A stretch of 64,000 nucleotides of DNA from a virus, in the IMG/VR virus record IMGVR_UViG_3300047564_002155, positions 96,001 to 160,000 of that record; one strand, given 5' to 3'. The stretch's first letter is position 1; each line of letters begins with the position of its first letter. This document shows positions 43,609 through 64,000 of the stretch, in pieces. Below the pieces are notes generated by a model. That model had not been told where the DNA came from. It did no database searches and saw nothing but the letters and a program-made list of their open reading frames with translations. The translations under genes and the position numbers were made by a program.

Positions 43609-43641
43609 CCAACTTTAATACTTATACCAAAGAGTTACGAT

Positions 43642-46803: not shown

Positions 46804-46805
46804 TT

Positions 46806-47423: not shown

Positions 47424-47475
47424 TGGGTGTTTTGGAAACGAATCGTGTGTCATAAAGAAAATTTTACAATTATCT

Positions 47476-48309
47476 ATGTTTGATATAAAGCCATTTCGCG
47501 AAGAAGTTTTGGATATCCTAAAGCAGAGCGGTAATCATTACAATACAAAAACCATAACCTTAAATAGAGTTGGTAAGGAATTCTCGTATCATAGATGGTT
47601 ACATCCATATCAAGGTGATTGGGAAGTTGAGTATCTCTTTACGGAAGAAATCTTACAAAACCTTTCAAAAATTATCTTACCCCATTCCACCGTCATTGAT
47701 GTTGGAGCCCAAGTAGGAAATATGTCCATTGCGTATTCCTTGTTCGCAGACAAAGTTATTTCGTTTGAACCAAACCCTGCTACCTTTGAAGTTTTGGAAA
47801 AAAACTCAAAGTTAAATCCAAATATCCACCCATACAATTATGCGGTTTCGGATGAAGAAGGTGAACTTACTTTTCACTATTCCGATATGGGATTTTGTAA
47901 TGGTGGATTTGCTACTCGTACACACTTTGGAGTTGGTGTAACCGGTCACAAAATTCCAATTGATGTTTATGGTGTAAATCTACCAAAATTTATTGAAGAT
48001 GAAAATATTGATTTGGGTGTGGTATCTTTAATAAAAGTAGACGCAGAGGGTCACGATAAAGACATTTTAAAAACTTTAAAACCAATTATTGAAGTTCATC
48101 ATCCTTATTTGATTACGGAAATTTATAATGGATTGGATGTTCAAGAAACACAAGAGTTATTAGATGTTATTCATTCCTATGGTTATAAAATTTATGATGA
48201 AGAATTCAATAAATGTAACCTTGAAAATTTAGGTAAAGAAATCAAGTCAGCAGTAGATATCACTCCGGGCTCTGGTCATAATTTGTTTTGTATTTATGAT
48301 TCCAAATAA
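47476..48309 (+). CDS. FkbM-family methyltransferase
   Basis: VIDVGAQVG, SFEPNP, LIKVDAEGHD. Confidence 0.9.
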   Translation: MFDIKPFREEVLDILKQSGNHYNTKTITLNRVGKEFSYHRWLHPYQGDWEVEYLFTEEILQNLSKIILPHSTVIDVGAQVGNMSIAYSLFADKVISFEPNPATFEVLEKNSKLNPNIHPYNYAVSDEEGELTFHYSDMGFCNGGFATRTHFGVGVTGHKIPIDVYGVNLPKFIEDENIDLGVVSLIKVDAEGHDKDILKTLKPIIEVHHPYLITEIYNGLDVQETQELLDVIHSYGYKIYDEEFNKCNLENLGKEIKSAVDITPGSGHNLFCIYDSK

Positions 48310-49048
48310 ATTACACTATGTTCATTTGAGTGCTGGTGGTAGGGAATGGAAACTACATCATTATTTGTCAGTTAAATCTGCATATATTCGTGGTGGGTTT
48401 GATTCTATTACCATTTGGATGGATACTGAACCAAGTGGAGATTGGTGGGATTTAACAAAACCTATGGTGAAATTAGAGTTTGTAGAACCACCTGTTGAAA
48501 TTTTCGGAAAACCCATCATACAACAAGCACACAAATCAGATGTAATTAGACTACAAGTTCTTTTGGATGAGGGTGGTGTGTATGCTGACACGGATACTAT
48601 TTTTGTAAAACCATATACCGACTTACTAAACAACAAAGTGGTTATGGGTCAACAAGGAGTAGATGGTTCTGAAGGATTGTGTCCGGCTATAATTCTTTCC
48701 GAACCAAATTCAACTTTTCTTACACGGTGGTTGATGGGATTTGAATATTCTTTTGGTGGAGGGCCTCCGGGCTCACCAACTTGGTGTACTCATTCAGTTG
48801 CATATCCCCTTTGGTTATCGCGTCAGATTGCGGATGAAATAACAATTTTAAATCATCAAGCTTTTTTCTGGCCGTTATATCACCAAGACCACATAGAAGC
48901 CCTTTTTGAAAGAAACCTTGAGTTTGAAAACGCGTACTCACATCATCTTTGGGAAAGTAGTGGTAAAAAATATTTAGATGAATTAACCATAGATAAAATT
49001 AAAACACAAAACACATCATTTCATATGATGGTTAGAAATTTGGTATGA
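48296..49048 (+). CDS. DxD glycosyltransferase (GT32/OCH1-like)
   Basis: MIPNKLHYV, HKSDVIRL...EGGVYADTD, HHLW. Confidence 0.88.
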   Translation: MIPNKLHYVHLSAGGREWKLHHYLSVKSAYIRGGFDSITIWMDTEPSGDWWDLTKPMVKLEFVEPPVEIFGKPIIQQAHKSDVIRLQVLLDEGGVYADTDTIFVKPYTDLLNNKVVMGQQGVDGSEGLCPAIILSEPNSTFLTRWLMGFEYSFGGGPPGSPTWCTHSVAYPLWLSRQIADEITILNHQAFFWPLYHQDHIEALFERNLEFENAYSHHLWESSGKKYLDELTIDKIKTQNTSFHMMVRNLV

Positions 49049-50247
49049 ATATAGTTTTATACGCGGGTGACCAAAAATACTATAAGACCCTACTACCCAT
49101 AGCTTTAGAGGTAAAACGTAGAGGTCACGATTTTTTATTTTTATATAGCGAAGAAACTCAATTAAAATACCCACACGAAAAAGAATACTTTTCTTATGAT
49201 GGTAGTTTTTCTGAAAATAAAGAATCTGTTGTATCACAAACTTTGGGTGTTGAGATACCATTTAAACCAGACATTTTAATTTTAGCCAGAGAGCGCTGGC
49301 AACCTGAACAATCAATTATTTACGAATTCAAAGAAAAATTTGGGTGTAAGATAGGATTAATTGAGGTTAGCAGCCATCTTATAAACAACATAGAAAATAG
49401 ACTTGAAATGTTGTCAAGAATGAACTATCCACAAAATATGATTGATTACTACTTTGAACACAGCGAGTTTGCAAAAGAAAGAAGAATTGATTGTATGAAT
49501 GAGAGCTATCGTGACAAAATAAAGGTAGTTGGCAATCCAAGATTCTCAAACATAAAACTAAATGGGTCTTTGGAAAAATACAATATTGATTTGGACAAAA
49601 AACAAATATTGTTTTGGGGTGTAATTAATACAACACGAGATATTTCCTTTCAGGCGTTAAAAACTTTGGTTGAAAAAACAAAATATACACATCAAGTGTT
49701 TTATAAATGTTATCCGGGAGAACCAACAAACCCAAAATTTATTAATCAATTTAATCCATTTGTAGTGGATGGGGTTCAGATAGTGTATGATGAAAGCGAT
49801 GTATTTGATATTGCTAATTTGTGTGATATACACATTGGTCAAATGAGCAGTGTATTTAATTTTGGATTTTATTTCAATAAAACAATTGTTAATTTGGACA
49901 GCGTGTGTGACGCATCTAACAAAATGAATGATATTAATACGTTCATAAATGAAACAGGAAATGGAGTAGAAGATTCCGCTAAGTTTTGGATGAATATATG
50001 GAAAATACCAACCATTGAAGACTTTAAAAAGTTTGTTGATGTTGATAGATTGCAAAAATTTAATCAAACCAATTTGATAGTTATGGACATAGTTAAACAA
50101 AACACGATTGATTTTGATTGGAATTGTGAATTTTTATCAAAACCAAAAAAAGATTACCGTGATTTAATTAAACTATTTGATGAATATGAACTTGATGGTA
50201 ACACATCAATTAGAATTTTAGATTTTTTAGAAAATGAAACTAACTGA
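49045..50247 (+). CDS. GT-B fold transferase (surface-polysaccharide / glycerophosphotransferase-like)
   Basis: VVGNPRF, YKCYPGE, CDIHIGQMSS, DGNTSIRI. Confidence 0.55.
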   Translation: MNIVLYAGDQKYYKTLLPIALEVKRRGHDFLFLYSEETQLKYPHEKEYFSYDGSFSENKESVVSQTLGVEIPFKPDILILARERWQPEQSIIYEFKEKFGCKIGLIEVSSHLINNIENRLEMLSRMNYPQNMIDYYFEHSEFAKERRIDCMNESYRDKIKVVGNPRFSNIKLNGSLEKYNIDLDKKQILFWGVINTTRDISFQALKTLVEKTKYTHQVFYKCYPGEPTNPKFINQFNPFVVDGVQIVYDESDVFDIANLCDIHIGQMSSVFNFGFYFNKTIVNLDSVCDASNKMNDINTFINETGNGVEDSAKFWMNIWKIPTIEDFKKFVDVDRLQKFNQTNLIVMDIVKQNTIDFDWNCEFLSKPKKDYRDLIKLFDEYELDGNTSIRILDFLENETN

Positions 50248-50809
50248 AGAAATATTTAATTCGTTAAGTGGTAAAGCTACCAACGGATTTAATGATGTAA
50301 AAACGTATCTTGAAATTGGTGTTAGAGAAGGTAATACGTTCTCTTTAAGAGTACCCGTTGTGAGTCAGAAATGTGTTGCGATTGATTGCTGGGATTTGTA
50401 CGAAACGCCATCTCAAAACGATATGAATCGTAATCGTGAAGAAGCAAAATATCAATATGAAAATTTAAATAAAAAGTTTTCTGATAATAATAAGGTAGAA
50501 GTTATTAGAGCATTCTCAAATGATTCTGAAATTATTTCACAATTTGGAGATGGTTACTTTGATTTAATTTTTATTGATGGAGACCATTCATATGAGGGTG
50601 TAAAGGAAGACCTCAATAACTGGTGGTCAAAATGTAATACTTTGTTTTGTGGTCACGATTATATGTTAACTGATACGATTTGGGGTGGTGTAAAATGCGG
50701 TGTAAAGCAGGCGGTTGATGAGTTTGTTAATGAAAAAAAAGAAGACATCAAAATGTTTAGGGTACATACCGAATCTACAAACCCAACTTGGTTTATTTGG
50801 AAAAAATGA
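50234..50809 (+). CDS. Class I SAM-dependent methyltransferase
   Basis: YLEIGVREG, DLIFIDGDHSYEGV..D, CGHDY. Confidence 0.9.
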   Translation: MKLTEEIFNSLSGKATNGFNDVKTYLEIGVREGNTFSLRVPVVSQKCVAIDCWDLYETPSQNDMNRNREEAKYQYENLNKKFSDNNKVEVIRAFSNDSEIISQFGDGYFDLIFIDGDHSYEGVKEDLNNWWSKCNTLFCGHDYMLTDTIWGGVKCGVKQAVDEFVNEKKEDIKMFRVHTESTNPTWFIWKK

Positions 50810-51099
50810 ATATCTACGTTGATATAGATGAAACCATTTGTTTTTATGATGGTGAAAGAAATTACGAAAATGCAATACCAAATTTGGAAAATATAAAAAA
50901 AATTCGTATATTGTATGACCAAGGACATACTATAACATATTGGAGTGCTAGAGGTAGTGTTACTGGAATAAATTGGTATGATATAACTAAAAAACAATTA
51001 GATGATTGGGGATGTAAATACCACAATTTAAGTGTGGGTGAAAAACCAGCATATGATTTATTAATATGTGATAAAACAAAACGAATAGAAGAACTTTAA
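50806..51099 (+). CDS. HAD-superfamily phosphatase (capsule-biosynthesis type)
   Basis: YVDIDETIC, WSARG, KP.YD..ICDK. Confidence 0.85.
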   Translation: MNIYVDIDETICFYDGERNYENAIPNLENIKKIRILYDQGHTITYWSARGSVTGINWYDITKKQLDDWGCKYHNLSVGEKPAYDLLICDKTKRIEEL

Positions 51100-51420
51100 A
51101 TGGAACAAACATACATCACTAAAATAAAAGATGAAAGTTGTCTAGCCGAAGGTCATCTTAAACATATTGATATTCAGTATCTAACCGAAGGTGAAGAGGT
51201 AATAGAAATCTATTCAAAAGATGAAGTTGAGCTGGTTCAAGAATATGATATTGAAAAAGATTACGCATTATATAAACCTATAAAAGAGGGAAGAAAAGTA
51301 ATACTAAAACCTTATGAATTTTTAATATTATATCCAAACGACTTACATATACCAGGACTTGCGTCTGGCAATCCGCAAGAAGTAAAAAAAGTAGTAATTA
51401 AAATACCCTACAACAAATGA
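51100..51420 (+). CDS. YhcH/YjgK/YiaL (NanQ-like) protein
   Basis: EGHLKHIDIQYL..GEE.I, YDIEKD, F.ILYPNDLHIP, KKVVIK. Confidence 0.85.
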   Translation: MEQTYITKIKDESCLAEGHLKHIDIQYLTEGEEVIEIYSKDEVELVQEYDIEKDYALYKPIKEGRKVILKPYEFLILYPNDLHIPGLASGNPQEVKKVVIKIPYNK

Positions 51421-52268
51421 AAAAAACATATATTATAGCAGAAATTGGTATCAACCACAATGGTGACCTTGATATCGCAAAGCGACTTATTGATATTGCA
51501 GCCTTATCGGGATGTGATGCTGTGAAGTTTCAAAAAAGAAATCCGGATGTTTGTGTTCCTGAACATCAAAAGGGAATTATGAGAGAAACCCCCTGGGGAA
51601 CTATGACATATCTTGATTACAAATACCGAGTTGAATTTGGTAAGGAAGAGTATGACCAAATAGATGAGTATTGTAAACAAAAAGGAATCGCCTGGTCAGC
51701 ATCGCCTTGGGATATGGATTCTCTTGAATTCTTAAATCAATATGATATTCCATTTATCAAAGTACCATCTGCAATGTTGACTAATGATGAATTGTTAGAG
51801 GGTTGTGTTGCTACGGGTAAAAAAGTTATATTTTCAACTGGTATGTCAACCCAAGAAGAAATTAATCACGCTGTGGAAGTTCTTCGTAATGCAAAGGTAA
51901 AGTATAATAACCAATATGAAATTGGATTACTACACTGCAACTCTACCTACCCAGCTCCAGTTAATGAGTTAAATTTGTCTGGCATCAAAACACTATCAGA
52001 AATGTATTCTGATTTTGAAATTGGATATTCCGGTCACGAATTTAGGTTAGGTACTTCGGTTGCTGCTGTTTATTTGGGGGCAAGTATTATTGAAAGACAC
52101 ATTACACTTGACCGAACAATGTGGGGTACTGACCATATGGCTTCGGTAGAACCTCAAGGTCTAATTAAACTGATAAAAGGAATCCGTGAACTTGAAGAAG
52201 CATATGGCGATGGTATCATCAGAGTAACCGACTCTGAAATGCCAGTTCGTAGTAAATTAAGGGGATAA
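51417..52268 (+). CDS. neuB: N-acetylneuraminate/nonulosonate synthase (NeuB family, lacking SAF domain)
   Basis: IIAEIGINHNG, DAVKFQKR, FSTGM, LHCNSTYP, GYSGHE, IERHITLD. Confidence 0.95.
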   Translation: MKKTYIIAEIGINHNGDLDIAKRLIDIAALSGCDAVKFQKRNPDVCVPEHQKGIMRETPWGTMTYLDYKYRVEFGKEEYDQIDEYCKQKGIAWSASPWDMDSLEFLNQYDIPFIKVPSAMLTNDELLEGCVATGKKVIFSTGMSTQEEINHAVEVLRNAKVKYNNQYEIGLLHCNSTYPAPVNELNLSGIKTLSEMYSDFEIGYSGHEFRLGTSVAAVYLGASIIERHITLDRTMWGTDHMASVEPQGLIKLIKGIRELEEAYGDGIIRVTDSEMPVRSKLRG

Positions 52269-53062
52269 TGTATACATCATACTTTGATTATATAGAAAAA
52301 TCAAAAATACATCAAACTGAATTTGATGTAACTAAATTTACATTAGATTTAAATGGTACAAATTTAGGTATAGAAGTACCTGACAACTATAATACTTTAG
52401 TTTCAAATATATCAAAAAATGTATTAGAAAAAATAAACAATGGTGATGTAATAGATGATAACCTTTTAGTTAAAATAAACAATATGTTGGATGTTCCTGA
52501 AGTAATAGAATTGGGAGAACATTTTGCTAAAGAACTATCAAATAAATTATACGGAACTGAAGTTGTTGTTGAACACCTACACACATATAAAAACAAAATA
52601 ACGGACCATCAAGAACAATCTTCTTGGTTATGGCACTATGATAATTGCGCAGTGGGTCAGATAAAAATTATGGTTTATCTTACACCAACTACACGAAAAA
52701 ATGGAGCGTTTTTAACATTGGTTTTTTCAGATTCATTTTTTGCATTAGATAGTACAAAAACATCACCAACATCAATATCACCACCATTGTATGAAGATAG
52801 TAGAATTCCTTTATCAGAGATAGAAGAATTAAAAGCCCAAGGGTTTTTTGAATATTATGTAGAGGGTGACTTGGGAACTTTTATTGTTTTTAGTCAAAAT
52901 ATTGCACATAAAGCAACAATTCCAATTGAAGAACCTGAAAGAATTTGTATGATATATAATTTTAGACCATATCATAAAAAATTAAACAACCACATTAGTA
53001 AAGAAGTAACCAAAGATTGGAATTTCAATGGTAATGTAAAAATATACAATTACGAATTATGA
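52268..53062 (+). CDS. 2OG-Fe(II) dioxygenase (PhyH-like)
   Basis: WHYD, IKIMVYL, NGAF, HKA, ER. Confidence 0.75.
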   Translation: MYTSYFDYIEKSKIHQTEFDVTKFTLDLNGTNLGIEVPDNYNTLVSNISKNVLEKINNGDVIDDNLLVKINNMLDVPEVIELGEHFAKELSNKLYGTEVVVEHLHTYKNKITDHQEQSSWLWHYDNCAVGQIKIMVYLTPTTRKNGAFLTLVFSDSFFALDSTKTSPTSISPPLYEDSRIPLSEIEELKAQGFFEYYVEGDLGTFIVFSQNIAHKATIPIEEPERICMIYNFRPYHKKLNNHISKEVTKDWNFNGNVKIYNYEL

Positions 53063-53613
53063 GAAAAATATTTATAGATTGTGGATACAATATGGGAGAG
53101 GTAACTTCTGATTTTAGAAATAAATTAGGAGATTCTTTTGAATATTACGCATTTGAAGCGAATCCTTACTTGTATGAAAAATACAAAAACAAACATAATT
53201 TTTTATCACTTGAAAATAAAGCTGTTTGGGTTTTTGATGGTGAGATTCCATTTTATGTTGTTGTTGTTGACCGAGCTGGTAATGATAACAAATATACCGG
53301 AGCTTCTACTTTGATAAAAGAAAAATCAAATTGGAATATGTCTATACATCAACGTGAGGAGGAAGTTATAGTAGAATGTTTTGATTTTTCAAGGTTCCTA
53401 TCAGAGAATTTTGAAAAAACAGACTACATAATTGTAAAAATGGACATAGAGGGTGCTGAATATGAAATACTTAATAAACTCGTAGAAACAAACACAGCAG
53501 ACTTTATGAATGAATTGTATGTAGAGTTTCACGATGAGAAGGTGGGATTATCAAAAGATAAAATAATTTCCGATTTAACGAATTTAAATGTAAAGGTACA
53601 CAAATGGCACTAA
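53059..53613 (+). CDS. FkbM-family methyltransferase
   Basis: FIDCGYNMG, AFEANP, VKMDIEGAEY, VEFH. Confidence 0.9.
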   Translation: MRKIFIDCGYNMGEVTSDFRNKLGDSFEYYAFEANPYLYEKYKNKHNFLSLENKAVWVFDGEIPFYVVVVDRAGNDNKYTGASTLIKEKSNWNMSIHQREEEVIVECFDFSRFLSENFEKTDYIIVKMDIEGAEYEILNKLVETNTADFMNELYVEFHDEKVGLSKDKIISDLTNLNVKVHKWH

Positions 53614-53954
53614 AATGGGATGATGGTGATTCTCTAAACGAGTTCATAAAAAATAACAAAGAAAATTTAGTAAATTTTGATACTAAAACAATAAAAACAA
53701 CCAATACCGATAAGGTTACAATATGTGAAATGACTCGTAGGATAGTTGATACTTTGGTTATTAATGACATTCACGAATCACATCCTGAAGTATTTGAGGA
53801 ATTGATGTCCCGTATAAAGTATGTATATATTTCGGCTAAAAAAATGCAAAATAGAATATCGGAGTTACGCGGAAGTTCTGATGATTTATGGGAGCAGATA
53901 GATGCCGATTATGACATATCAAATAGAATTGAACGTATTCAAAAAATAAAATGA
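53604..53954 (+). CDS. Hypothetical protein
   Basis: 116-aa ORF with overlapping start and stop. Confidence 0.6.
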   Translation: MALKWDDGDSLNEFIKNNKENLVNFDTKTIKTTNTDKVTICEMTRRIVDTLVINDIHESHPEVFEELMSRIKYVYISAKKMQNRISELRGSSDDLWEQIDADYDISNRIERIQKIK

Positions 53955-54634
53955 AATCAATATCGGATATTGTAGTTATTCTACAAGCAAGAATGAACTC
54001 CCAGCGAGTTCCTAAAAAAATGTTAAAACCATTTTTGGATTCAAACTTATTTGAAATCGCTATTAACAAACTTTTAAACTCAAAGGTAATACCAAAGGAA
54101 AACATATACGTTTCCGTATTTGAAGATGAGTTAAAGGATATAGCTAAAAAGTATGGTTTAAACATATACAATAGAAGTAAAGAATCTGCTAATAATGACA
54201 ACTCACTTCAAAAAATTTATGAATGGCATGATAAGTTACCATTCAAATACGTTATAAAAGTTAACGCATGTTCACCTTTGCTTAAAATAGAAACAATTGA
54301 TGGGTTTATTACTCAATTTATAAATCAGTCAGAAGATAATTTGTTTGGAGTTATTCCTATGAAAGATTATTTTTGGAATAAAGATGGTATGTTAGTTACA
54401 CCTTGGCCAGATGGTCAAACAATTATGAACACTAAAGCGGTAGAGATAACATATAAAGCAGCTCACGTTTTATACGCTTCTTGTTTAGATTTGATATCAC
54501 AAAATAGATTTATGGGTGATTTTCAAAAAGAGGGTGGGATAAAATTATATCCAATGGATGAGTTAGAATGTTTTGATATTGATTATGAGTGGCAATTTAA
54601 TCTAGCTCAAATTTTATATGAAAAATTTTCATAA
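53951..54634 (+). CDS. neuA: CMP-nonulosonate synthetase (NeuA family cytidylyltransferase)
   Basis: LQARMNSQRVPKKML, NACSPLL, FDIDYEWQF. Confidence 0.88.
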   Translation: MKSISDIVVILQARMNSQRVPKKMLKPFLDSNLFEIAINKLLNSKVIPKENIYVSVFEDELKDIAKKYGLNIYNRSKESANNDNSLQKIYEWHDKLPFKYVIKVNACSPLLKIETIDGFITQFINQSEDNLFGVIPMKDYFWNKDGMLVTPWPDGQTIMNTKAVEITYKAAHVLYASCLDLISQNRFMGDFQKEGGIKLYPMDELECFDIDYEWQFNLAQILYEKFS

Positions 54635-55331
54635 TATAATATATTCAAACGGAAAAATTAATTTACCTATGTTTAAATTTATAAAAGGTAATACTGATTT
54701 ATTATCGGAAAATATATCTGATAAAAAAGTTCTCGTTCTTGGTTCAGGACCATCGGCTCGTGATATTGATTGGTCAAGTTATGATTGGGATGTTTTGGTA
54801 ACTACAAGTTTTTTTTATTTAAATGACTATGTTGTATCAAAAAAACCAGTACATATAACCTTATCGGATTTAGTTGATTTAACCGACCCAAGACTTATTA
54901 ATTTTTTAGATGAGAATCCACGATGTACAATTGGATTTGAGCCAAAAGTTCATCCATTTTACGAAGGAATTGAATTTCAAAACTTTTATAAAAAATACGA
55001 ATCCAGAATGATACTTTACAATGTTTTGGGTGGTAAAGAAGGTGTTGCTGGTCGTGTTTGTTGGTTAGTTCTTGCCTGTGAACCGAAAATGTTGTATATT
55101 TGTGGTATAGATGGTATAAGTAAAGATAGAGAAAAAGACCCACAAAACTATTTTAGAGACCACATTGGTACTGCGGACCCGTATCCATATGATACTTATT
55201 GGAAATCTTTTCAAGAGTTTGGAAATAATATTTATAGATTAGGTAGAGAACTAAACGTGGATATTAAAAATCTTGGTAAAGGAAAACCCTATAATATGAT
55301 TACTAATTTGAGTGAAGAGTATGAATTATAA
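54618..55331 (+). CDS. Putative sialyl/nonulosonyl-transferase (CstII/Maf-like)
   Basis: KKVLVLGSGPSARDID ... LYICGIDG; follows neuA. Confidence 0.65.
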   Translation: MKNFHNIIYSNGKINLPMFKFIKGNTDLLSENISDKKVLVLGSGPSARDIDWSSYDWDVLVTTSFFYLNDYVVSKKPVHITLSDLVDLTDPRLINFLDENPRCTIGFEPKVHPFYEGIEFQNFYKKYESRMILYNVLGGKEGVAGRVCWLVLACEPKMLYICGIDGISKDREKDPQNYFRDHIGTADPYPYDTYWKSFQEFGNNIYRLGRELNVDIKNLGKGKPYNMITNLSEEYEL

Positions 55332-56211
55332 AGAACTAACATATGAAACCGCAGTACGCGGTGATTTTGGTAATAAAATCGCAGATGAGTGGTCAAGGTG
55401 GAAATCTTATGAAAGAAAACGAAAAGAACAATTTGACTTTCCACTTGATGAATCAGCACTAAAGATTACAAACGAAGTACACAAAAATGGATACGTTGTA
55501 GTAAAGAATTTTTTTGACAAAGACCTTTTGCAAAAACTAAACAAGGAAACGCAAAATTATATATTGGAAGGTAAGTTTCAAAAATCAATGGCCGGTGGCG
55601 GGGTTGGTCGTGAAATTGAAATACGAAACTCTAATTTATGGACAACCATTGACCAACCTCTTTTGAATGTTGAGTCTCTTTGGGATGTTGCGTTTCACGA
55701 TGATTTGGTTGTATTAGCAGCTAATTATTTCGGATGTCTGCCATATTTTGGTACCTGTAATTTAAGAAAAAGTTTTGTAAATGACTTAAAAGAAGACCAC
55801 ACGCAAATATATCACCAAGACCCAAATAGTCCTCAATTTATCAAAATGTTTTTGTATTTAAACGATGTAGATGATATGGGTGGTCCTTTTTGTATTGTGG
55901 AAGGAAGTCATAGAAATAAGTTTGAAGGTTGTTATGATAAATACCGATGGGATACTGATGAAATTAACTTAATATATGGTGAGGATAAGGTAAAATATCT
56001 TACGGCTAATGTTGGGGATTTGATTATTGCAAACACCACAGCGTTTCATAAAGGTACAAAACCATATTCTTCCGATAGAACAATGATTACATTGGATTGG
56101 GTTTTACATCCAGAATTTTTTAGTAATCCCGAATTCAAGATAAAACAAGAAAAATTTGATAAACTTCCAGATTGGAAAAAACCTGTAATGGATTATCTAA
56201 TTAAAGTATGA
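55321..56211 (+). CDS. Phytanoyl-CoA dioxygenase-like 2OG-Fe(II) enzyme
   Basis: NGYVVVKNF, YHQD, KMFLYLNDV...GPF..VEGSH, GDLII, FHKG, DR. Confidence 0.85.
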   Translation: MNYKELTYETAVRGDFGNKIADEWSRWKSYERKRKEQFDFPLDESALKITNEVHKNGYVVVKNFFDKDLLQKLNKETQNYILEGKFQKSMAGGGVGREIEIRNSNLWTTIDQPLLNVESLWDVAFHDDLVVLAANYFGCLPYFGTCNLRKSFVNDLKEDHTQIYHQDPNSPQFIKMFLYLNDVDDMGGPFCIVEGSHRNKFEGCYDKYRWDTDEINLIYGEDKVKYLTANVGDLIIANTTAFHKGTKPYSSDRTMITLDWVLHPEFFSNPEFKIKQEKFDKLPDWKKPVMDYLIKV

Positions 56212-57374
56212 ATAAAATAACATTTTGTATTCCAAGTAAATCAAATTTGAGATACTTGAAAACAGCAATTCCATCTATTAGAAAAAATGCATATCGTAAA
56301 GACCACGATATTATTGTGTTTGTAGATTCGGATGAAGATGGTACAATTGAGTGGTTAAAAGAAAACGCTGAATCTTTGGGTGTAAAATACTATGTAAATC
56401 CTAATTTGGGTAGTTCATTATATGGTATTGGTAAAGCTTATGATTATTGTATTGATAAATCAGAAACAAATATTGTAATGATTTTTCACGCAGATATGAT
56501 GTTGGGTAAGGATGCAGACTTACACGCTTTTAAACACCTAAAACCATTATCGGTTGTGTGTTCTACTCGTATTGAACCACCACTACACCCAAACGCAGGT
56601 GAAAAAATACTTGAAGATTTTGGGTTGTGGCCGGAAGAGTTTAAAGGTCAAGAATTTGATTCATATGTTGATTCTTTAATCATTCAAAACAAAAACAAAA
56701 CTACTGAAGGTGTATTTGCTCCGTGGATGGTTTACAAAGAAGACATTCAGTCAATAGGAGGTCACGACCCAATTATGCATTCGTGTAGAGAAGATTCCGA
56801 TTTGTTTAATAGATTTGTATTAAATGGTTACACATTAGTTCAGTCTTGGGACTCATTAGTGTATCATCTAACCGGCAGAGGTGCTGGTTCATTTGGAGGT
56901 GATGAAAAAAGACACGAGCAATGGAAACTTGATATGAACAATTCTACAAAAGAATTTATTCGTAAATGGGGATGTGGTGTAAAACACGATAAAATGATGA
57001 AACCGATAGTTCCACACAAATACGATATAGAATTCAAAGTCACAAACTGTCAAACCCAACACCTTCAATTATTAGAACCTTGGTGTGATAAAATGAGTGT
57101 GGATTGTTCCCAAGATGTAATCAATCAATACATTCAGTCTGAACAGCCGAACACAAAATTTGATTTGACTAAAAGGTTCAATGTGAATGGAAAATCAGAC
57201 ATTGTGGTGGAATTTGACGCATTACGACTGAATAATCAGTCATTTCAATTCATCCAAAATCTATCTGAAATTTTTGATTTTAACAACTTTGATAGTGGTG
57301 AGTACGAATTTGACATATTTAAAGTAAAGGTCAACCGTGTAAAACACTATGAAATGAGTCTTGTAAAACTATGA
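56208..57374 (+). CDS. Glycosyltransferase family 2
   Basis: ITFCIP, DSDEDGT, FHADM, IGGHD, REDSDLFNR, VYH. Confidence 0.9.
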   Translation: MNKITFCIPSKSNLRYLKTAIPSIRKNAYRKDHDIIVFVDSDEDGTIEWLKENAESLGVKYYVNPNLGSSLYGIGKAYDYCIDKSETNIVMIFHADMMLGKDADLHAFKHLKPLSVVCSTRIEPPLHPNAGEKILEDFGLWPEEFKGQEFDSYVDSLIIQNKNKTTEGVFAPWMVYKEDIQSIGGHDPIMHSCREDSDLFNRFVLNGYTLVQSWDSLVYHLTGRGAGSFGGDEKRHEQWKLDMNNSTKEFIRKWGCGVKHDKMMKPIVPHKYDIEFKVTNCQTQHLQLLEPWCDKMSVDCSQDVINQYIQSEQPNTKFDLTKRFNVNGKSDIVVEFDALRLNNQSFQFIQNLSEIFDFNNFDSGEYEFDIFKVKVNRVKHYEMSLVKL

Positions 57375-57901: not shown

Positions 57902-58747
57902 ATGGCTGTTTACAAAAGAGGTGATAATAACGAATTCATCAAAGAAATCCAAAAAGCATTGGGTGTTGACCCAATTGGTAATTTTGGACCAAAAACCGAA
58001 GATGCTGTAAAAGCATTTCAAAAGAAACACGGACTTACCGCTGATGGTATTGTTGGTGAATCCACATTAGTTAAATTGGGTCTCAAAGCTCCAGCAGCTC
58101 CTGCTGCTAAGCCCGCTGCTAAACCTGCAGCAGCCGCTCCTGCAAAACCAAGTGCTGCTGCAAAATACAATAAAGAATCTATTGAAAAAGCAGTAAAAGC
58201 AAAAGGATACAAGTGGTTTGAAGGTAAAGACCTTGAACTTAATATCGTAGGTGTTCGTAATTCAGATACAGGTACAAAAGTAACCAATGCTTTTGATGAT
58301 AGAATTACCGTATCATACAAAGAAAATGGTGTTTGGGTTTACAATGAATGGATGAATACTACCGACCCTGGTACTAAAGGTGTTAAAGAATATCACAACG
58401 CAGCTGGTGTTGCAAGATTGGTTCCTGGTCAGTATGTTGACTCACACGCGTTGGGTCTACACCAAGGTAAGTATGAAGCCCTAAAACAATTTGGTAAGGT
58501 AAAAGTTTATCGTGATGCAAATCGTGATATGAACTATGATGAAACCAAAATCCAAGAAGGTGTATTTGGTATTAACATCCACAAAGCAGGTGCTGATTCT
58601 ACATTTGTAGAAAACTGGTCTGAAGGATGTCAAGTATTCAAAAGAGCGGCTGACTTTGAACAATTTATGACAATTGCAAGAAAAGCAGCGGCTGCTGGAA
58701 ATAAGAAGTTTACTTATACTTTGATTGAATCAAAAGATATCGTTTAA
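57902..58747 (+). CDS. Endolysin-like protein: peptidoglycan-binding domain + PAAK linker + YkuD-like catalytic domain
   Basis: IQKALG...GNFGPKTEDAVKAFQKKHGLTADGIVG; C-terminal GINIHKAG...WSEGCQV; AGGAG and a late motif upstream. Confidence 0.8.
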   Translation: MAVYKRGDNNEFIKEIQKALGVDPIGNFGPKTEDAVKAFQKKHGLTADGIVGESTLVKLGLKAPAAPAAKPAAKPAAAAPAKPSAAAKYNKESIEKAVKAKGYKWFEGKDLELNIVGVRNSDTGTKVTNAFDDRITVSYKENGVWVYNEWMNTTDPGTKGVKEYHNAAGVARLVPGQYVDSHALGLHQGKYEALKQFGKVKVYRDANRDMNYDETKIQEGVFGINIHKAGADSTFVENWSEGCQVFKRAADFEQFMTIARKAAAAGNKKFTYTLIESKDIV

Positions 58748-58809
58748 GATAGTTATTTAAAAGAGTTTTTTAAGAAGTTTCGGGTCAACAACTAATAGGA
58801 CTTGAAACT

Positions 58810-60729
58810 ATGAAAAAATTATTATTCCTTTTATTAGGGATTTTATCAATTGGTGCTGTAGCACAAAATGGTAAGACCGAGATATTAGTGGCTCCAAACT
58901 CAAACAGCCCATATATCTTGGTTGATACCTTGTTTACCCTTGAAGATACATCTGTAACTACGGATATTTACATTCACTTTGCAAATCCAACCGCAAGTAA
59001 TGTAAAGGCAGTTCAGTTCAGATTGTTCTATGACAATACGAAGTTCTCAAATGTTCAGGTATTTTGGGGGCCAACCGCTCTTTCTATATCAGACAAGTAT
59101 GGTTCCTTCTTCAAAAGTGGTGACTATGTGAATATTATTGGAACTTACACCGGAAACAATCAAAACTTTGATTGGTCTGATGGTGCTATGTTCAAAGTAA
59201 GATTAACGCATGGTTCGGCATATCAAGGTGTGGTAAACTCAATGGCTACTACCGGTACAACTTCATACTCAAACCTTGCTACTACTGGAAATGGTACGGA
59301 TGTTACTTTGGGATTATTCAATTATGGTGGCGCTTTCCAAATGCAACCAATCACATTCCCAATCAGAGTTAAAAACGCAGATGGTTCTGCAGCACAAGGT
59401 GTTTGGTTTTCAGCATCAAAAAGATTAAAGTCAACTCCGCAAGCAACTTGGCAACCAATTACATCTGACTCAACAAACGCATTGGGTTTAGTATCATTTA
59501 CACATCCACTTGATACCTCATATTGGAATTTAAAGATTACTGCTCAAACCGACACTATGGGTGATGGTGGTGCTATTTCAATTACGGATGCATACAAATT
59601 GGCAAACCACGCTTCAATGCAAGATACTTTGAGTGGTATTGAATGGTATGAAGGTGATATCAACCAATCACAAACAGCAACAATTTCTGACGCATTTGCT
59701 GTGTTTAATAGATTGGCTCTTCAGTCTACGGATTGGGATGGTTTATTCACCGGCGTAAACAACGTATCGGTATTATGGCCAAATGAGTACACTACTGCTG
59801 TATCAGCAACCGGTATTCCAGACTGGACTACTTCGCCAAGAAGATATCAAATTGATACTATTGTAAACTCACTTGACTCAATTAACCCATACATTTATGT
59901 AGTGGGTGACGCGACAACTACGGGCTATAACAACCCTGCGGTTATTATGGCAAAAATTGCAAACCCAGGCACCGGAACTGATTACATACTTGACCCAGCA
60001 GTTTATATGGTCAATAGAGATGACACGGTTCAATTCCGTATTCCTAAATTGGTAATTGCAAATAATCAAATGGAAGTTCCTGTGACTATGTTCACATTTG
60101 GTAATAAGATTGGTGCTGCTCAAATGGGTATTGAGTTTGATACTACAATCTTCCAATTTAGTTCTATCAAAGTTGGTGATGATGTATCAAAATGGACATC
60201 ATTAATTTCGGTAGAAAAGGGTAGAGTATTCTTCGCAGGACACGAAGACAAAATGAACCCATCGTTGGTTGAAACAATGACCAATCAATTTACATTTGTA
60301 TTTAATGTTATCAATCCAATTGGATGGCAGACTTCACCTTTGAGAATCTTTGATAAATCTGCTGGTAATGAAAAGGCAGAAGACCTGTCAGTTAAACCAT
60401 CACCAAACGATGGTTCGGTAGTGAATAGAAACTCAATGAACCCTGACCTTGCTGAATTGATGACCGGATTCAAAGTGTATCCAAACCCTGTTACCGACCT
60501 TACCGATGGTTGGTTAGTAATTGAACACTTTAACGAATATAGAAATTCTGACTTTACTGGTGTAATTTACAACATTAGTGGTCAAGTATCACAAGTTTAC
60601 CAAACAAAGATTACCAACATTGGTTTCCAAGTACACGGAATAAATGTTAAGGACCTACCGAATGGAGTATACTTTGTTAAGTTAGTTACGGCGGATAGAG
60701 AAAAAGTTGTGAAAATTGTTAAATATTAA
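58810..60729 (+). CDS. Secreted T9SS-cargo-like protein with cohesin- and dockerin-like segments
   Basis: Signal MKKLLFLLLGILSIGAVA|Q. Cohesin-like VKAVQFRLFYD and IGAAQMGIEFD. Dockerin-like GAISITDA...GDINQSQTATISDA. CTD FKVYPNP...IYNISGQ...LPNGVYFVKL...KIVK. Confidence 0.85.
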   Translation: MKKLLFLLLGILSIGAVAQNGKTEILVAPNSNSPYILVDTLFTLEDTSVTTDIYIHFANPTASNVKAVQFRLFYDNTKFSNVQVFWGPTALSISDKYGSFFKSGDYVNIIGTYTGNNQNFDWSDGAMFKVRLTHGSAYQGVVNSMATTGTTSYSNLATTGNGTDVTLGLFNYGGAFQMQPITFPIRVKNADGSAAQGVWFSASKRLKSTPQATWQPITSDSTNALGLVSFTHPLDTSYWNLKITAQTDTMGDGGAISITDAYKLANHASMQDTLSGIEWYEGDINQSQTATISDAFAVFNRLALQSTDWDGLFTGVNNVSVLWPNEYTTAVSATGIPDWTTSPRRYQIDTIVNSLDSINPYIYVVGDATTTGYNNPAVIMAKIANPGTGTDYILDPAVYMVNRDDTVQFRIPKLVIANNQMEVPVTMFTFGNKIGAAQMGIEFDTTIFQFSSIKVGDDVSKWTSLISVEKGRVFFAGHEDKMNPSLVETMTNQFTFVFNVINPIGWQTSPLRIFDKSAGNEKAEDLSVKPSPNDGSVVNRNSMNPDLAELMTGFKVYPNPVTDLTDGWLVIEHFNEYRNSDFTGVIYNISGQVSQVYQTKITNIGFQVHGINVKDLPNGVYFVKLVTADREKVVKIVKY

Positions 60730-60743
60730 TAAAAAGGAAGAAT

Positions 60744-60992
60744 ATGGCATTTGTAGACATCTTCAAAGACAAAAACGATTTTAATGAAAAAACAATCGTG
60801 GGATTTCTGTCATTTTCAGTTATGGCTATCTTCGCCGGCGCTGATGTTGTAACAGGTATTATGGGTCAAGAGTTAATCATCTCTGACACTATTTTTAATT
60901 CATTCGTAATGATTACTTTGGGTGCTTTTGGTATTGCTGAAGCTGGAAAGATTTTCGGTGGCAAGAAAAAAGATGAAGAAGAATTAGGTTAA
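60744..60992 (+). CDS. Small two-TM membrane protein (holin-like)
   Basis: Two hydrophobic helices and a charged C-terminus. Confidence 0.55.
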   Translation: MAFVDIFKDKNDFNEKTIVGFLSFSVMAIFAGADVVTGIMGQELIISDTIFNSFVMITLGAFGIAEAGKIFGGKKKDEEELG

Positions 60993-61009
60993 TTTAAAAT
61001 AAGGAAGAA

Positions 61010-61405
61010 GTGATGTCAGAAGAACAACAAGAAGGCGGACTATCGGGTCTTAAAAAGACCATCCTTGGAGTAGCTGGAACTGCTGTTACAGGTTTTGGAA
61101 TCTGGGCAAGTACAAACATCAATAAGATTTTTGGTGTAGAGGAAGAGTCGGATGTAAAAACTGAACAAGTTCAACAGGTTCAACAACAACCTGCTGCAGC
61201 TCCCGTGGTTATTAACCTTGAAAATAACAACACTCAACAGCAAAGTTCTGGCGGTGGTACTCATACAAGAGAAATCATCAGAGAAGTTCCTGCTCAACAA
61301 CCTGCAGCAGCTCCCGCTCCTGTGGTTGAAAAGAAGGAAACTCCTGCTGAAAGAATCGCAAGACTAAAAGCTGAAAAAGAAGCTAAAAACGCGGGTGGTC
61401 AATGA
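61010..61405 (+). CDS. Single-TM protein with Q/P-rich low-complexity tail
   Basis: TILGVAGTAVTGFGIWA followed by QQQPAAAP repeats. Confidence 0.7.
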   Translation: MMSEEQQEGGLSGLKKTILGVAGTAVTGFGIWASTNINKIFGVEEESDVKTEQVQQVQQQPAAAPVVINLENNNTQQQSSGGGTHTREIIREVPAQQPAAAPAPVVEKKETPAERIARLKAEKEAKNAGGQ

Positions 61406-62142
61406 GAACTCGTAAAGATGTAATTTTAGAGTATATCTTTGCACCATTAGGTGTGATTATGGTGGTGGGTGGCTTACTTTTTGTAGGAACAATGGCTACT
61501 TCGTGTAAGTCATCTATTTCTACGGAAGCATACAAAGCGGAGTTTGAACAAGCACAACCATTAAATACACTACCGGCTTATACTGGTGAAAAGCAAGTGG
61601 TTCAACTTGCTACTCTTAATGTTAACAAAGAACTTTGGGATATGTTCCCTGAACTTCGTGACAAAAGAGTTGGTATGGGTGTATCAAATCGTATTGTAGA
61701 GAACTTTGAAACAACTGGTAGGTTTACTTATGCTGAAGAAAAAGAAGCAATTGTAAACCAAATGTTGGATACTTGGGAAAAAGACTTACAAGGTCTTGGT
61801 GATGGTAAAACAAAATTAAATGTTGGTTCTGTGGTATTGCCAAAGTATATTGTGTATGCTGAAATCTATGACTTTTCGGTATCTTACGCTGAAACTTACG
61901 ACAAGGGTAAATTGAATAAAACCAACACTACAATTATTGGTATCCAAATCCGTATGGTAAATGTGGATAATTCTCAATACATTGTAGCATCAGGTCAAGG
62001 AACATCTACTCAAGTTGGTGAGGGTTACTTCAAAAACCCAACTATGGGGTTTGATAACTCTACCGTAGGTATCTCTACACAACGCGCTTTGGAGGTTGCT
62101 ACTATGAACCTCATCAAGCGTATGGAACAAAATGGATGGTAA
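61402..62142 (+). CDS. CsgG-like outer-membrane lipoprotein
   Basis: Hydrophobic stretch + ATSC lipobox; GMGVSNRIVE..ETTGRFT..E; YIVYAEIYDF; IGIQIRMVNVDNSQYIVASGQG. Confidence 0.7.
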   Translation: MRTRKDVILEYIFAPLGVIMVVGGLLFVGTMATSCKSSISTEAYKAEFEQAQPLNTLPAYTGEKQVVQLATLNVNKELWDMFPELRDKRVGMGVSNRIVENFETTGRFTYAEEKEAIVNQMLDTWEKDLQGLGDGKTKLNVGSVVLPKYIVYAEIYDFSVSYAETYDKGKLNKTNTTIIGIQIRMVNVDNSQYIVASGQGTSTQVGEGYFKNPTMGFDNSTVGISTQRALEVATMNLIKRMEQNGW

Positions 62143-63583
62143 ACATTGGATAACTCTCCTATTTCTCGTATTGGGGTTTGGTGTAGCTGCACAAACATAT
62201 CAGTATAGCTACACCGACCCTTGTACAGGGATATTAAACACAGTTACAATTACACAACAAACGGGTTCGGTTACATTATTTTACGCCGGACAATATCAAA
62301 CTTTTACAGCGGCTCAATTACAAGCCGGAGCATATGAAGCTTGGATAGCTCAAATCAATGCTCAGTTTCCACCTGGTTCAAATCCTTGTGCTGGGAATGG
62401 TGGTCAAAACGCAAATAATTCCAACGTGAGTATTGGAACCAATTCAGCAACAAATATTACAAACATCATAGGTATAGCTACTTCAGTTAGTGGTTCTGCT
62501 TCGGGCGCTGCCGGAAATATTGGCGGTGGTATGGGTGGTGGTGATATGGGCGGTGGTGGTTCAAGTGGTGGTGACCCCGGTGAAAACGGAGCCGGTGGGT
62601 CATCTTCATCAAGTGGTGGCTCCGGTGGTGGTTCAAAACCACCTACCGGTGGAAGTGGTTCATCAAGTGGTGGTGGCTCTACCAGCGGTAGTGGTTCTAC
62701 TGGCGGTGGAAGTGGTTCGGGTGGTGGTCAACCATCCGGTGGAGGTCAACCCGCGTCTGGTCAAGGTGAGGGTGGTGGTGGTTCCGTTCCATCATCCGGT
62801 GGTGGTGGTGAAAGTGGTGGTGGAACCGAGCAAGGTGCTGTGGGTGAGAGTTCTACAACAACCGCAAGTGGTGGTGAATCCGAATCATCTTCATCCGAAG
62901 GTGGTGGTGGAGGTGGCGGTAGTCGTCAAAAATCAAAACAAGAGCGTATTGCAAGAGGTGCTTTAATTGGGGCTGGTGATATTGTTGTGATTAGAAACTC
63001 CGCTAATATCCAAGATACGGGTAAAGATAACCTAAAAGTAAACCTATCACTAACGCACGTTAATACAAAACAAAACTTTATTAAAGGTATGGCATTAAAC
63101 TATCAGACAGGTGAGAATGTAGCTAATGTGACTTTGTATGGTAGTTTTAAATCAAAAGGTTATATGGGTGTCTTTTCAAACTCATTTATGACCAATTTTC
63201 AAACCGATTGGTTCAATACAGGTTCATTCTTAAATGCTCAAAAAACAGGTCCTGCGACCTGGTTGCTTGGTTTAAACTATACATTTGGTTCGTTGGGTAA
63301 AAGTGATTTCCAAAACTTTTCTCTTGTTGGCGGAACCTTTACAAATTTTAAAGGTGGTAAATCATTTAGTTCTAATGTAATGATGTTAGGTATTTATAGT
63401 CCCTATGTGTTTTATTACGAAGGTCAATGGTATAAATCAGGAGTTATATTAGTTCCTATGATGAATATGGATTTTAAATTAACTGATAAGTTTAAATGGA
63501 GCATTTCATTTAGTGGTGCTTATCAGCTTAATGCTGAAATTTTAAATTACCAAGTAATGACCGGAACAAAGATGTTGTTATGA
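62132..63583 (+). CDS. Secreted protein with Gly/Ser-rich linker and probable C-terminal outer-membrane beta-barrel
   Basis: Signal ...GFGVAA|Q; small Cys-pair N-domain (YTDPC..NPC); ~150-aa G/S tract; C-terminal amphipathic beta strands. Confidence 0.7.
   Translation: MDGKHWITLLFLVLGFGVAAQTYQYSYTDPCTGILNTVTITQQTGSVTLFYAGQYQTFTAAQLQAGAYEAWIAQINAQFPPGSNPCAGNGGQNANNSNVSIGTNSATNITNIIGIATSVSGSASGAAGNIGGGMGGGDMGGGGSSGGDPGENGAGGSSSSSGGSGGGSKPPTGGSGSSSGGGSTSGSGSTGGGSGSGGGQPSGGGQPASGQGEGGGGSVPSSGGGGESGGGTEQGAVGESSTTTASGGESESSSSEGGGGGGGSRQKSKQERIARGALIGAGDIVVIRNSANIQDTGKDNLKVNLSLTHVNTKQNFIKGMALNYQTGENVANVTLYGSFKSKGYMGVFSNSFMTNFQTDWFNTGSFLNAQKTGPATWLLGLNYTFGSLGKSDFQNFSLVGGTFTNFKGGKSFSSNVMMLGIYSPYVFYYEGQWYKSGVILVPMMNMDFKLTDKFKWSISFSGAYQLNAEILNYQVMTGTKMLL
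62490..62925 (+). repeat. Low-complexity GGT/TCA-rich coding tract (Gly/Ser linker)
   Basis: Runs of GGTGGT with AGT/TCA/TCC codons. Confidence 0.85.
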
Positions 63584-64000
63584 GATGGTTTATTTTTATT
63601 CTTATTTTTATACTCACAGTATCAATTGAGGGGTATTCTCAAACCTTTACTCATTCGGGAACTATTAGAACTGAAGGTAACATAGTTGTTCCAGGAGTAA
63701 CAGTTAAACTTTATAAAAGAACTACTCCTGTAATAACAGGATTCACAAACCAGCAGAACTACAACGGACACTCTTACTATCGGTCAACAAGTTCTGCCTT
63801 CTGGTCAGCAGCCAAAGCTGCTTGTGAGAATATGGGTGGACATTTAGTAACAGTAACTTCAGCAGCTGAAAATAGCTTCATCTTCAATCTATGGCCATCT
63901 GGCTGGATTGGACTAACAGACGAAGTAACGGAAGGACAGTGGAGATGGGTTACAGGAGAAACTTATTCATACTCATCTTGGAATAGCGGTGAACCAAACA
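63580..64000 (+). CDS. Secreted C-type lectin domain protein (partial, runs off the window)
   Basis: MRWFIFILIFILTVSIEGYS|Q...YNGHSYY...W.AAKAAC..MGGHLVTV.SAAEN.FI...WIGLTD...EGQWRWVTGE..SYSSWNSGEPN. Confidence 0.88.
   Translation, partial: MRWFIFILIFILTVSIEGYSQTFTHSGTIRTEGNIVVPGVTVKLYKRTTPVITGFTNQQNYNGHSYYRSTSSAFWSAAKAACENMGGHLVTVTSAAENSFIFNLWPSGWIGLTDEVTEGQWRWVTGETYSYSSWNSGEPN

Follow-up and report, generated by a model that had tools for sequence, protein, structure and literature searches.

A conserved phage gene module that may mount exchangeable glycan-binding proteins on the envelope of infected Bacteroidota

Why does a large phage keep, after its endolysin gene, a run of closely packed genes for exported proteins? 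The question is raised by a stretch of 64,000 nucleotides (hereafter the window), which corresponds to bases 96001-160000 of a 168,128-bp virus record in IMG/VR (IMGVR_UViG_3300047564_002155; CheckV completeness 94 %). The window codes for a tail sheath, a ribonucleotide reductase, a DnaB helicase and a family B-type DNA polymerase and therefore comes from a tailed phage of large size. Among cultured phages, the gene block has its nearest relative in Flavobacterium phage vB_FspM_immuto (hereafter immuto), a myophage of 160 kb whose host is Flavobacterium sp. LMO8, and from this we infer a Flavobacterium-type member of the Bacteroidota as the host of the window phage. An initial annotation, made from the sequence, had placed the block in a Bacteroidota phage, which agrees with the phage genes of the window and with the same block in the cultured myophage. 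It had also described six tightly packed or overlapping genes after the endolysin. All six open reading frames are present on the + strand at the coordinates of Table 1, but the block does not end at position 64000: the sixth gene runs on to a length of 330 amino acids (aa) and two more genes follow. The block thus consists of eight genes, g1 to g8, all on the + strand and packed or overlapping, with spacings of 62 nt (endolysin/g1), 14 nt (g1/g2) and 17 nt (g2/g3) and overlaps of 4 nt (g3/g4), 11 nt (g4/g5) and 4 nt (g5/g6). Our answer, which we hold tentatively and at a little under an even chance, is that it is a conserved, phage-specific envelope module whose proteins go into the envelope of the Bacteroidota host during infection and mount exchangeable glycan binders there. 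An export signal is found on every module protein (signal peptides were judged by sequence inspection), and a virion role, which had also been discounted in the initial annotation, was therefore rejected. The three Sec signals followed by Gln that had been pointed out are visible in the translations of g1 (..GAVA/QNG), g5 (..GVAA/QTY) and g6 (..EGYS/QTF).

More than 555 IMG/VR contigs encode a relative of g4, and 80 loci among them (g4 identity 33 to 79 %) were examined. The g4 gene is present in all 80, g5 in 77, g1 in 76, g3 and g8 in 70 each and a g6/g7-type gene in 58. The order g1-g3-g4-g5-variable slot-g8 is kept in these loci, down to 33 % g4 identity, and also in immuto, whose GenBank record labels only a 'cohesin domain-containing protein' and a 'lectin C-type domain-containing protein'. 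When one genome per species was scanned by pattern (185,579 species), a single relative was found, on a 254-kb Bacteroidetes contig of a metagenome-assembled genome (MAG) that bears the entire module amid phage-like genes; none of 300 further Bacteroidota genomes sampled had a member of the g5 family. Because the order is kept in viral contigs and the module is nearly absent from the sampled bacterial genomes, it looks phage-specific and old, and not like a fresh capture from a host. Several independent studies of freshwater, lakes, estuaries and drinking water have metagenomes with DNA nearly identical to that of this phage. Contigs of 94-96 % identity that cover the endolysin, g1, g4 and the beginning of g5 were also found in an RNA library (X15), where DNA carry-over is possible, and these were not counted as expression.

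In a distant variant of the locus (L041-L046 and L072) the g1-like protein measures 940-986 aa and matches cohesin and CTD (C-terminal domain) models weakly, no g3 was detected, a chassis protein (see below) is lacking, g5 has 328 aa and no Gly/Ser tether, and a longer g8 (170-180 aa) matches the g4 profile directly. At another locus (L048:14060-16252), about 1.8 kb 3' of g8, a 731-aa protein carries a type B signal for a type IX secretion system (T9SS; CHU_C, 2.8e-17), a PKD-like domain and an SprB repeat, and is a second kind of phage-encoded T9SS cargo.

The g1 product is ordered as a Sec signal (MKK, a hydrophobic core and AVA/Q), a possible cohesin, a transthyretin-like beta-sandwich, a dockerin-like double repeat, a spacer, a cohesin and a T9SS type A CTD. 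The CTD scores 40.5 bits against Por_Secre_tail (PF18962; cut-off 27; 3.4e-10; aa 556-637/638) and 39.6 bits against the type A model TIGR04183 (cut-off 23; 3.9e-10), so that g1 has both the CTD and the Sec signal of a T9SS type A cargo. The cohesin scores 29.5 bits against PF00963 (cut-off 24.1) and covers only model positions 15-76, while coverage is near full in orthologs (positions 16-137 in L005 and 5-137 in L039). Among 35 diverse family members from viral contigs (alignment A6), the CTD was matched in 33 and Cohesin in 30 (best 1.9e-12); nine matched Dockerin_1 with E<=0.01 (7.8e-5 at best), where the window g1 has its dockerin-like repeat. The T9SS sorting domain and the cohesin-like domain of the initial annotation were thus recovered by profile searches, and the dockerin-like one through relatives. 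Compared with PDB sequences, the g1 family profile found a T9SS CTD chain (8glj_D, 9.7e-7), clostridial cohesins at positions 402-543 (6kg8_A, 3.6e-4; also 4ums and 3ul4), transthyretin-like proteins at positions 187-248 (E 0.02-0.1) and a cluster of dockerin chains at 251-306 (E 0.4-0.8), none of the latter significant singly. A phmmer search of g1 against the same sequences gave a weak cohesin match only. The possible first cohesin is suggested by a marginal match of positions 51-157 (E 0.011) to the 143-aa chain of the cohesin-dockerin entries 5nrk/5nrm, which we take to be the cohesin from its length. An FxxxYD-type motif of this N-terminal domain lines up with the C-terminal cohesin, and HHalign of the two g1 domains was non-significant with five sequences only. 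In immuto, g1 is split into gp014 (corresponding to aa 1-374) and gp015, which has only the signal, the cohesin and the CTD.

The slot 3' of g5 carries exchangeable glycan-binding heads (lectin, PA14, LamG). In the window it is filled by g6 and g7. The g6 protein has a Sec signal (GYS/Q), a C-type lectin-like domain (CTLD) at aa 74-168 and, at aa 172-330, a chassis of a transthyretin-like sandwich followed by loop-helix segments. The canonical C-type lectin that had been noted scores 62.3 bits against Lectin_C (PF00059; cut-off 22.6; 8.6e-17; full-length protein), its EPN (E138-P-N140), E145 and WND (W156-N-D158) residues are invariant in 22 relatives, and its profile finds animal CTLDs in the PDB at 6e-39. 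By sequence it is a true CTLD, one that has only C82 of the four canonical disulfide Cys, the positions of the other three being occupied by Tyr, Leu/Pro and Leu/Glu. The chassis is common to the middle of g1, g6, g7 and immuto gp014 (alignment A4). Against a database of nine proteins, the last 160 aa of g6 matched the g7 C-terminus (E 1e-6) and, more weakly, the middle of g1. Two Ca-binding loop/helix segments are visible in g1 and one is clear in g6 on inspection of the alignment, and the g6 family consensus loop YDVNNDGKITVSD is of the DxNxDGxIxxxD, that is dockerin/EF-hand, type. In the PDB, the chassis profile gave weak transthyretin-like matches only and no dockerin match. When the chassis alone was used as the query, its partners were Lectin_C (about 330 aa), Lectin_C with Laminin_G_3 (about 555 aa), PA14 (380-570 aa) and heads that Pfam does not recognise, and an Ig_7 plus lectin combination occurs in more distant loci. 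Among loci covered on both sides, the g1 chassis and a separate chassis gene were both present in 48 and both absent in 11, with two exceptions; these loci are interrelated, so the counts are not independent.

The slot varies even between close strains. A 10.5-kb contig from a lake run (X5), with flanks about 99 % identical, departs from the window at 63644, right after the g6 signal peptide, and continues with the start of mature g7 (ITLTPIGTQ), so that this strain has no g6. The presence of g6 therefore differs between close strains with the signal-peptide junction as the exchange point, which indicates cassette exchange.

The initial annotation had read g4 as a CsgG-like pore. PF03783 (CsgG) gave no direct match to g4, nor did a translation of the whole phage in six frames yield one at E<=1, and phmmer of g4 against PDB sequences found nothing. 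The sequence link is transitive only: a full HMMER scan collected relatives in 188 clusters, and PF03783 was matched by 28 of 56 aligned relatives (best 1.9e-25). The AlphaFold2 (AF2) model of g4 has a predicted local distance difference test score (pLDDT) of 85, and its best Foldseek match is CsgG (1.7e-9 over about 230 columns). VIA gave a Z of 14.2 to CsgG, with a root-mean-square deviation of 4.7-6.1 A over 165-188 residues, compared with a Z of 10-11 to PelC, LptE and CT253 (about 3 Z below) and 8.7 to TraT. The protein-language features of g4 are nearest those of CsgG/LpoB clusters (score 0.94). As judged from the model, g4 has the CsgG protomer fold. A lipobox-like motif is present in g4 (ATSC) and in only 35 of 68 relatives, immuto gp017 having a plain signal peptide. 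HHalign identifies g8 as a shorter paralog of g4 (probability 98.2 %, E 4.8e-14). Searches for csgF, csgE, csgA and csgB gave no Pfam, NCBIfam or PHROG match among g1-g9 at E<=0.1. In a library of representative proteins, bacterial relatives of g4 are fused to a Peptidase_C14 (caspase) domain (P0169, P0208, P0215, P0227 and P0253) or to a Ser/Thr protein kinase domain (P0185 and P0190), and the fold is therefore not always a channel. In PelC and LptE, lipoproteins of this fold form a ring or a plug next to a barrel.

Three parts are distinguished in g5 (Table 1): a small domain with two conserved Cys, a Gly/Ser tether of 190 aa and a C-terminal part predicted by AF2 to form about 12-13 strands (aa 277-481). 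The top Foldseek and VIA matches of g5 (CymA, CdiB, EspP, OmpG, NalP and PorV; Z 12-16) are all outer-membrane barrels of 12-16 strands, and the model supports this fold class, the beta-barrel of the initial annotation, for the C-terminal part. The motif [YF]x[YF]x[DN]PC is found in 57 of 66 relatives, and the tether varies among relatives from 0 to 361 aa. The small inner-membrane protein g3 has an acidic N-terminus, 62 % identical to that of immuto gp016, a single Gly/Thr/Ala-rich transmembrane domain (TMD) at about aa 17-35, a Gln/Pro/Ala-rich linker and a charged C-terminal helix. Where it was found among the 80 loci, its gene holds the same place, always 3' of g1. Pro/Ala-rich linkers occur in both g3 (61160-61330, PAAAPAP..) and the endolysin (58090-58160, PAAKPAA..); they are the sole cross-match between endolysin and module (E 0.003 in a tiny database) and probably reflect low-complexity likeness.

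How could these parts work together? We propose that g1 would leave via Sec and then, by its type A CTD, via the host T9SS, to serve on or at the cell surface as a scaffoldin. Its cohesin is predicted to bind the dockerin-like chassis of the slot proteins (the C-type lectin here; PA14, LamG and other heads elsewhere) and possibly also the dockerin of other g1 molecules, and the outcome would be a multivalent glycan-binding assembly. g4, g8 and g5 would be the phage's own outer-membrane parts and most likely provide, with g3, a passage or anchor for the partners that have no CTD, either by forming a channel of the CsgG type or, like PelC/PelB or LptE/LptD, by pairing a lipoprotein with a barrel. 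Surface display by cohesin-dockerin pairing is a plausible prediction. Such an assembly may serve to mask surface glycan receptors, for superinfection exclusion or for shielding progeny from debris, or to tie infected cells to neighbouring hosts.

Several observations weigh against this proposal. Dockerin_1 had no match at E<=0.1 in the window's own proteins by Pfam. g6 and g7 have Sec signals only and no CTD (Pfam and sequence), and type A CTD cargo of Flavobacterium is often released, not anchored. Long hairpin strands are predicted in the g4 model at aa 149-187; their proximal halves alternate between hydrophobic and polar residues, and in 56 relatives their distal half (aa 162-178) is polar. 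This makes a CsgG barrel through the membrane doubtful, so that from the CsgG-like pore of the initial annotation we retain the fold but not the pore. The g5 model is of low confidence (pLDDT 51 overall, 55-78 in the barrel part), and therefore no single barrel family was chosen. Finally, 47 of the 80 loci have a g2-like or endolysin gene within the module or at most 1.5 kb from it, and the adjacency to the endolysin is thus not incidental.

The gene g2, which the initial annotation had counted as a member of the module, is present but is probably not a core part. Its product has hydrophobic segments at aa 17-41 and 44-62 and a Lys/Asp/Glu-rich charged tail (KKKDEEELG). It matched phrog_38409, whose function is unannotated, and no annotated holin family. 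Small size, two TMDs and a charged C-terminal tail are features of class II-like holins, a likeness and not a family assignment. The position of g2 is mobile: it lies between g1 and g3 in the window, while elsewhere it is found after g8 with the endolysin next, in the g3-g4 interval or ahead of g1, and it is directly 5' of the endolysin in L005/L022-type loci. Most likely, g2 is a holin. Endolysin homologs are inside or adjoin the module in 31 of the 80 loci, in some lineages between g4 and g5 or between g2 and g4. In 33 of the 80 loci, all immuto-type ones included, no lysis gene was detected at the module, and in immuto itself the endolysin lies at a distance of 8 kb. A second two-TMD family (126-209 aa, motif ..RWxITA..WKE(M/L)LL(I/L)LLGAF..) fills the g3-g4 slot in many related phages (L051-L056, L060, L077, L092, L047, L076, L080, L084 and L085), sometimes accompanied by a g2-type protein and a 50-aa protein with one TMD.

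The module is thus co-located, and probably transcribed and expressed, with lysis genes, and a lysis-related role of g3, g4, g5 and g8 is therefore the main rival explanation. On this explanation, which we consider unlikely, g3 (an inner-membrane anchor whose long linker would lie in the periplasm), g4/g8 and g5 would carry out the last step or the timing of lysis, disrupting or permeabilising the outer membrane like spanins or acting as a regulator, with the cohesin and lectin proteins as an accessory or sensor. The holin-like and endolysin genes, placed in some loci within the g4-g5 or g3-g4 intervals, speak for it, as do the other small two-TMD proteins in the g3-g4 slot of further loci; the overlapping g3 and g4 genes, for an inner-membrane anchor and an outer-membrane lipoprotein, have the topology of a spanin pair, and lysis regulation was suggested for phage CsgG by Buchholz et al. 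(PMC9004378). However, g4 is a globular protein of CsgG fold and unlike the small proline-rich o-spanins, its lipobox is absent in many relatives, immuto gp017 among them, and the module is always accompanied by cohesin or lectin proteins with no obvious role in lysis. The loci in which no lysis gene was detected at the module, and the distant endolysin of immuto, also argue against it.

It is distinctly unlikely, in our estimate, that g1 is secreted by the T9SS and freed, forming with the lectins, themselves released on lysis or exported, a soluble multivalent glycan binder and no cell-bound display; outside the cell this complex would clump hosts, bind particles of polysaccharide or coat debris. 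The type A CTD without any other anchor on g1 would suit such a complex, one clear cohesin, a possible second and a dockerin-like repeat per molecule would permit networks, the linkage to lysis would free periplasmic partners, and an idea of 'sibling capture' exists for phage curli clusters (PMC7029224); yet the conserved g4, g5, g8 and g3 would be left without a role. The lectins could also stay in the periplasm and bind peptidoglycan or other periplasmic glycans, held by the g1 cohesin, ahead of g1 export or in its place, in a periplasmic or inner-leaflet complex, with g4/g8 acting in an LpoB- or LptE-like way. EPN-type lectin sites could accept GlcNAc-like sugars, the lack of any signal other than Sec on g6 and g7 fits, and the CsgG/LpoB fold is often periplasmic and not a pore, as in the caspase and kinase fusions and as the polar g4 hairpin would allow. 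We regard this as quite improbable, because the T9SS CTD kept in 33 of 35 g1 relatives argues for export of the scaffold and the exchange of heads between close strains resembles an adaptation to surface glycans that vary. That the block is a chimera of the assembly, or a host operon lately captured intact, two of the outcomes which the initial annotation had said would undo it, is largely refuted and extremely improbable. The slightly higher G+C content of the block (0.39-0.42 against 0.30-0.33 in the preceding 10 kb) could speak for it, part of the difference being due to the Gly/Ser tether. Against this, related contigs share the order at g4 identities from 33 to 96 %, phage genes lie on both flanks, and the only match among the species genomes was on the phage-like MAG contig, with g5 absent from the further Bacteroidota sample. 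The arrangement is real and not chimeric, since in an independent lake metagenome a single contig of 4,850 nt spans 58609-63458, from the endolysin end through g5, at 99.4 % identity.

We keep tentatively to the view of a phage module that equips the host envelope with glycan binders. A more far-reaching form of it appears rather unlikely: an outer-membrane secretion-display machine of the phage's own, in which a CsgG-fold ring and the tethered barrel would bring out or anchor dockerin-tagged lectins that plug into a T9SS-delivered cohesin scaffold, coupled to the holin-endolysin clock. If this were true, surface glycans would be read or masked by a 'viral cellulosome of lectins', and the glycans around the infected cell would decide on the timing of lysis, on superinfection exclusion or on neighbour capture. 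The envelope module as proposed here would show that a common group of large aquatic Bacteroidota phages remodels the surface of the infected cell. The variable slot would act like a receptor-matching cassette and could thereby bear on superinfection exclusion, aggregation and particle formation in natural waters. The module also touches the question of what phage CsgG genes do, and the cultured pair of immuto and Flavobacterium sp. LMO8 makes it directly testable.

Table 1 Features of the gene block and its endolysin neighbour. Window positions are given, and past the window end positions in L002, the DNA that includes 8 kb beyond the window (L002:9121-9939 is 162120-162938 of the virus record).
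Feature	Position	Strand	Basis
Endolysin, PG_binding_1 + Pro/Ala linker + catalytic domain; context, non-core	57902..58747	+	Pfam 9.3e-14; phrog_3000, several endolysin PHROGs
g1, 639 aa, scaffoldin-like T9SS cargo	58810..60729	+	Pfam/TIGR04183 matches, family profile
g1 aa 25-170, possible first cohesin-like domain	58882..59319	+	weak: family-profile match E 0.011
g1 aa 176-311, chassis (beta-sandwich + dockerin-like pair)	59335..59742	+	alignment A4, weak profile matches
g1 aa 402-545, cohesin	60013..60444	+	PF00963 29.5 bits, cut-off 24.1
g1 aa 556-638, T9SS type A CTD	60475..60723	+	PF18962 3.4e-10; TIGR04183 3.9e-10
g2, 82 aa, two TMDs, holin-like, probably non-core	60744..60992	+	hydrophobicity; phrog_38409
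g3, 131 aa, inner-membrane protein, core part	61010..61405	+	sequence; position kept in relatives
g4, 246 aa, CsgG-fold lipoprotein, lipobox ..ATSC, Cys35	61402..62142	+	AF2, Foldseek, VIA, relatives' PF03783
g5, 483 aa, small domain + Gly/Ser tether + outer-membrane beta-barrel	62132..63583	+	AF2, Foldseek, VIA
g5 aa 21-86, small domain, two conserved Cys	62192..62389	+	
g5 aa 87-276, Gly/Ser tether	62390..62959	+	
g5 aa 277-483, outer-membrane beta-barrel part	62960..63580	+	AF2
g6, 330 aa, C-type lectin + chassis	63580..64000, on to L002:7573	+	Lectin_C match
g7, 379 aa, head without family match + chassis	L002:7575-8714	+	alignment with g6 and g1
g8, 132 aa, short CsgG-like	L002:8711-9109	+	HHalign to g4

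The gene 3' of g8 is C45/Ntn-hydrolase-like and lies outside the module; its match to the C45 autoproteolytic acyltransferase/hydrolase model NF040521 (L002:9121-9939, 1.6e-9) is below the cut-off, and such a gene follows the module in only a few related loci. Further on (L002:13537-14397), a 286-aa protein with no signal peptide has a Laminin_G_3 (ConA-like lectin) domain (1.9e-17), a domain type that also serves as a variable-slot head in related phages. Directly 5' of the endolysin, a long run of glycan-related genes occupies 41788-57374, including a Nol-like carbamoyltransferase at 41788-43608 (phrog_1601, 1.3e-121); the adjacency of this run to the module is not kept in immuto. PADLOC gave no match for the nine proteins submitted to it. 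A promoter and terminator scan gave counts about equal to those of shuffled sequences with a consensus set that does not cover Bacteroidota promoters.

No phage cohesin-dockerin-T9SS system was found in the literature searched. The module combines known kinds of parts, namely cohesin-dockerin assemblies, phage CsgG clusters and T9SS cargo, in a combination that we did not find described. Like cellulosome-type and non-cellulosomal assemblies, it combines a cohesin protein that has a surface-targeting signal with dockerin-like Ca-loop/helix proteins that have exchangeable heads, and g1, with both cohesin and dockerin-like modules, resembles an adaptor scaffoldin. In contrast to cellulosomes, the module is phage-encoded and its cargo consists of lectin-type binders, not enzymes; anchoring would use a T9SS CTD instead of S-layer homology (SLH) domains or sortase, and the dockerin-like part is divergent and fused to a transthyretin-like sandwich, its pairing with the cohesin being presumed. 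T9SS type A cargo such as gingipains and Flavobacterium johnsoniae enzymes shares with g1 the Sec signal followed by Gln and a C-terminal sorting domain above the cut-off, and the lectin adhesin RemA is a functional analogue of the proposed glycan-binding surface assembly. Here, however, the cargo gene is viral, and the lectin, having no CTD, would have to ride on the scaffold or leave separately.

Phage csgG/csgF clusters are known from pelagimyophages, where 'sibling capture' or cell aggregation was proposed (PMC7029224), and from the OM43 phage Melnitz, where lysis regulation was proposed (PMC9004378). They too encode a CsgG-fold protein in a small operon of exported proteins, and both published suggestions would fit here. 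The present module differs in that CsgF, CsgE, CsgA and CsgB were not detected, in the host phylum, in its two CsgG-fold paralogs and in the polar distal hairpin, while the T9SS cohesin protein, the lectins and the tethered barrel are absent from the published clusters. The PelC/PelB and LptE/LptD pairs are comparable in that g4 resembles PelC and LptE and its gene adjoins that of the outer-membrane barrel g5; yet g4 is closer to CsgG, no link to a polysaccharide or lipopolysaccharide pathway was seen, and the N-terminal domain of g5, borne on its long Gly/Ser tether, has no counterpart in the PelB and LptD barrels. With phage lysis cassettes the module shares the interleaving with holin-like and endolysin genes and, in g3/g4, the gene overlap and the topology of inner-membrane anchor and outer-membrane lipoprotein. 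It differs from them because the size and fold of g4 are unlike those of any o-spanin, and because the module is also found away from lysis genes, always with the cohesin protein and usually with lectin-type proteins.

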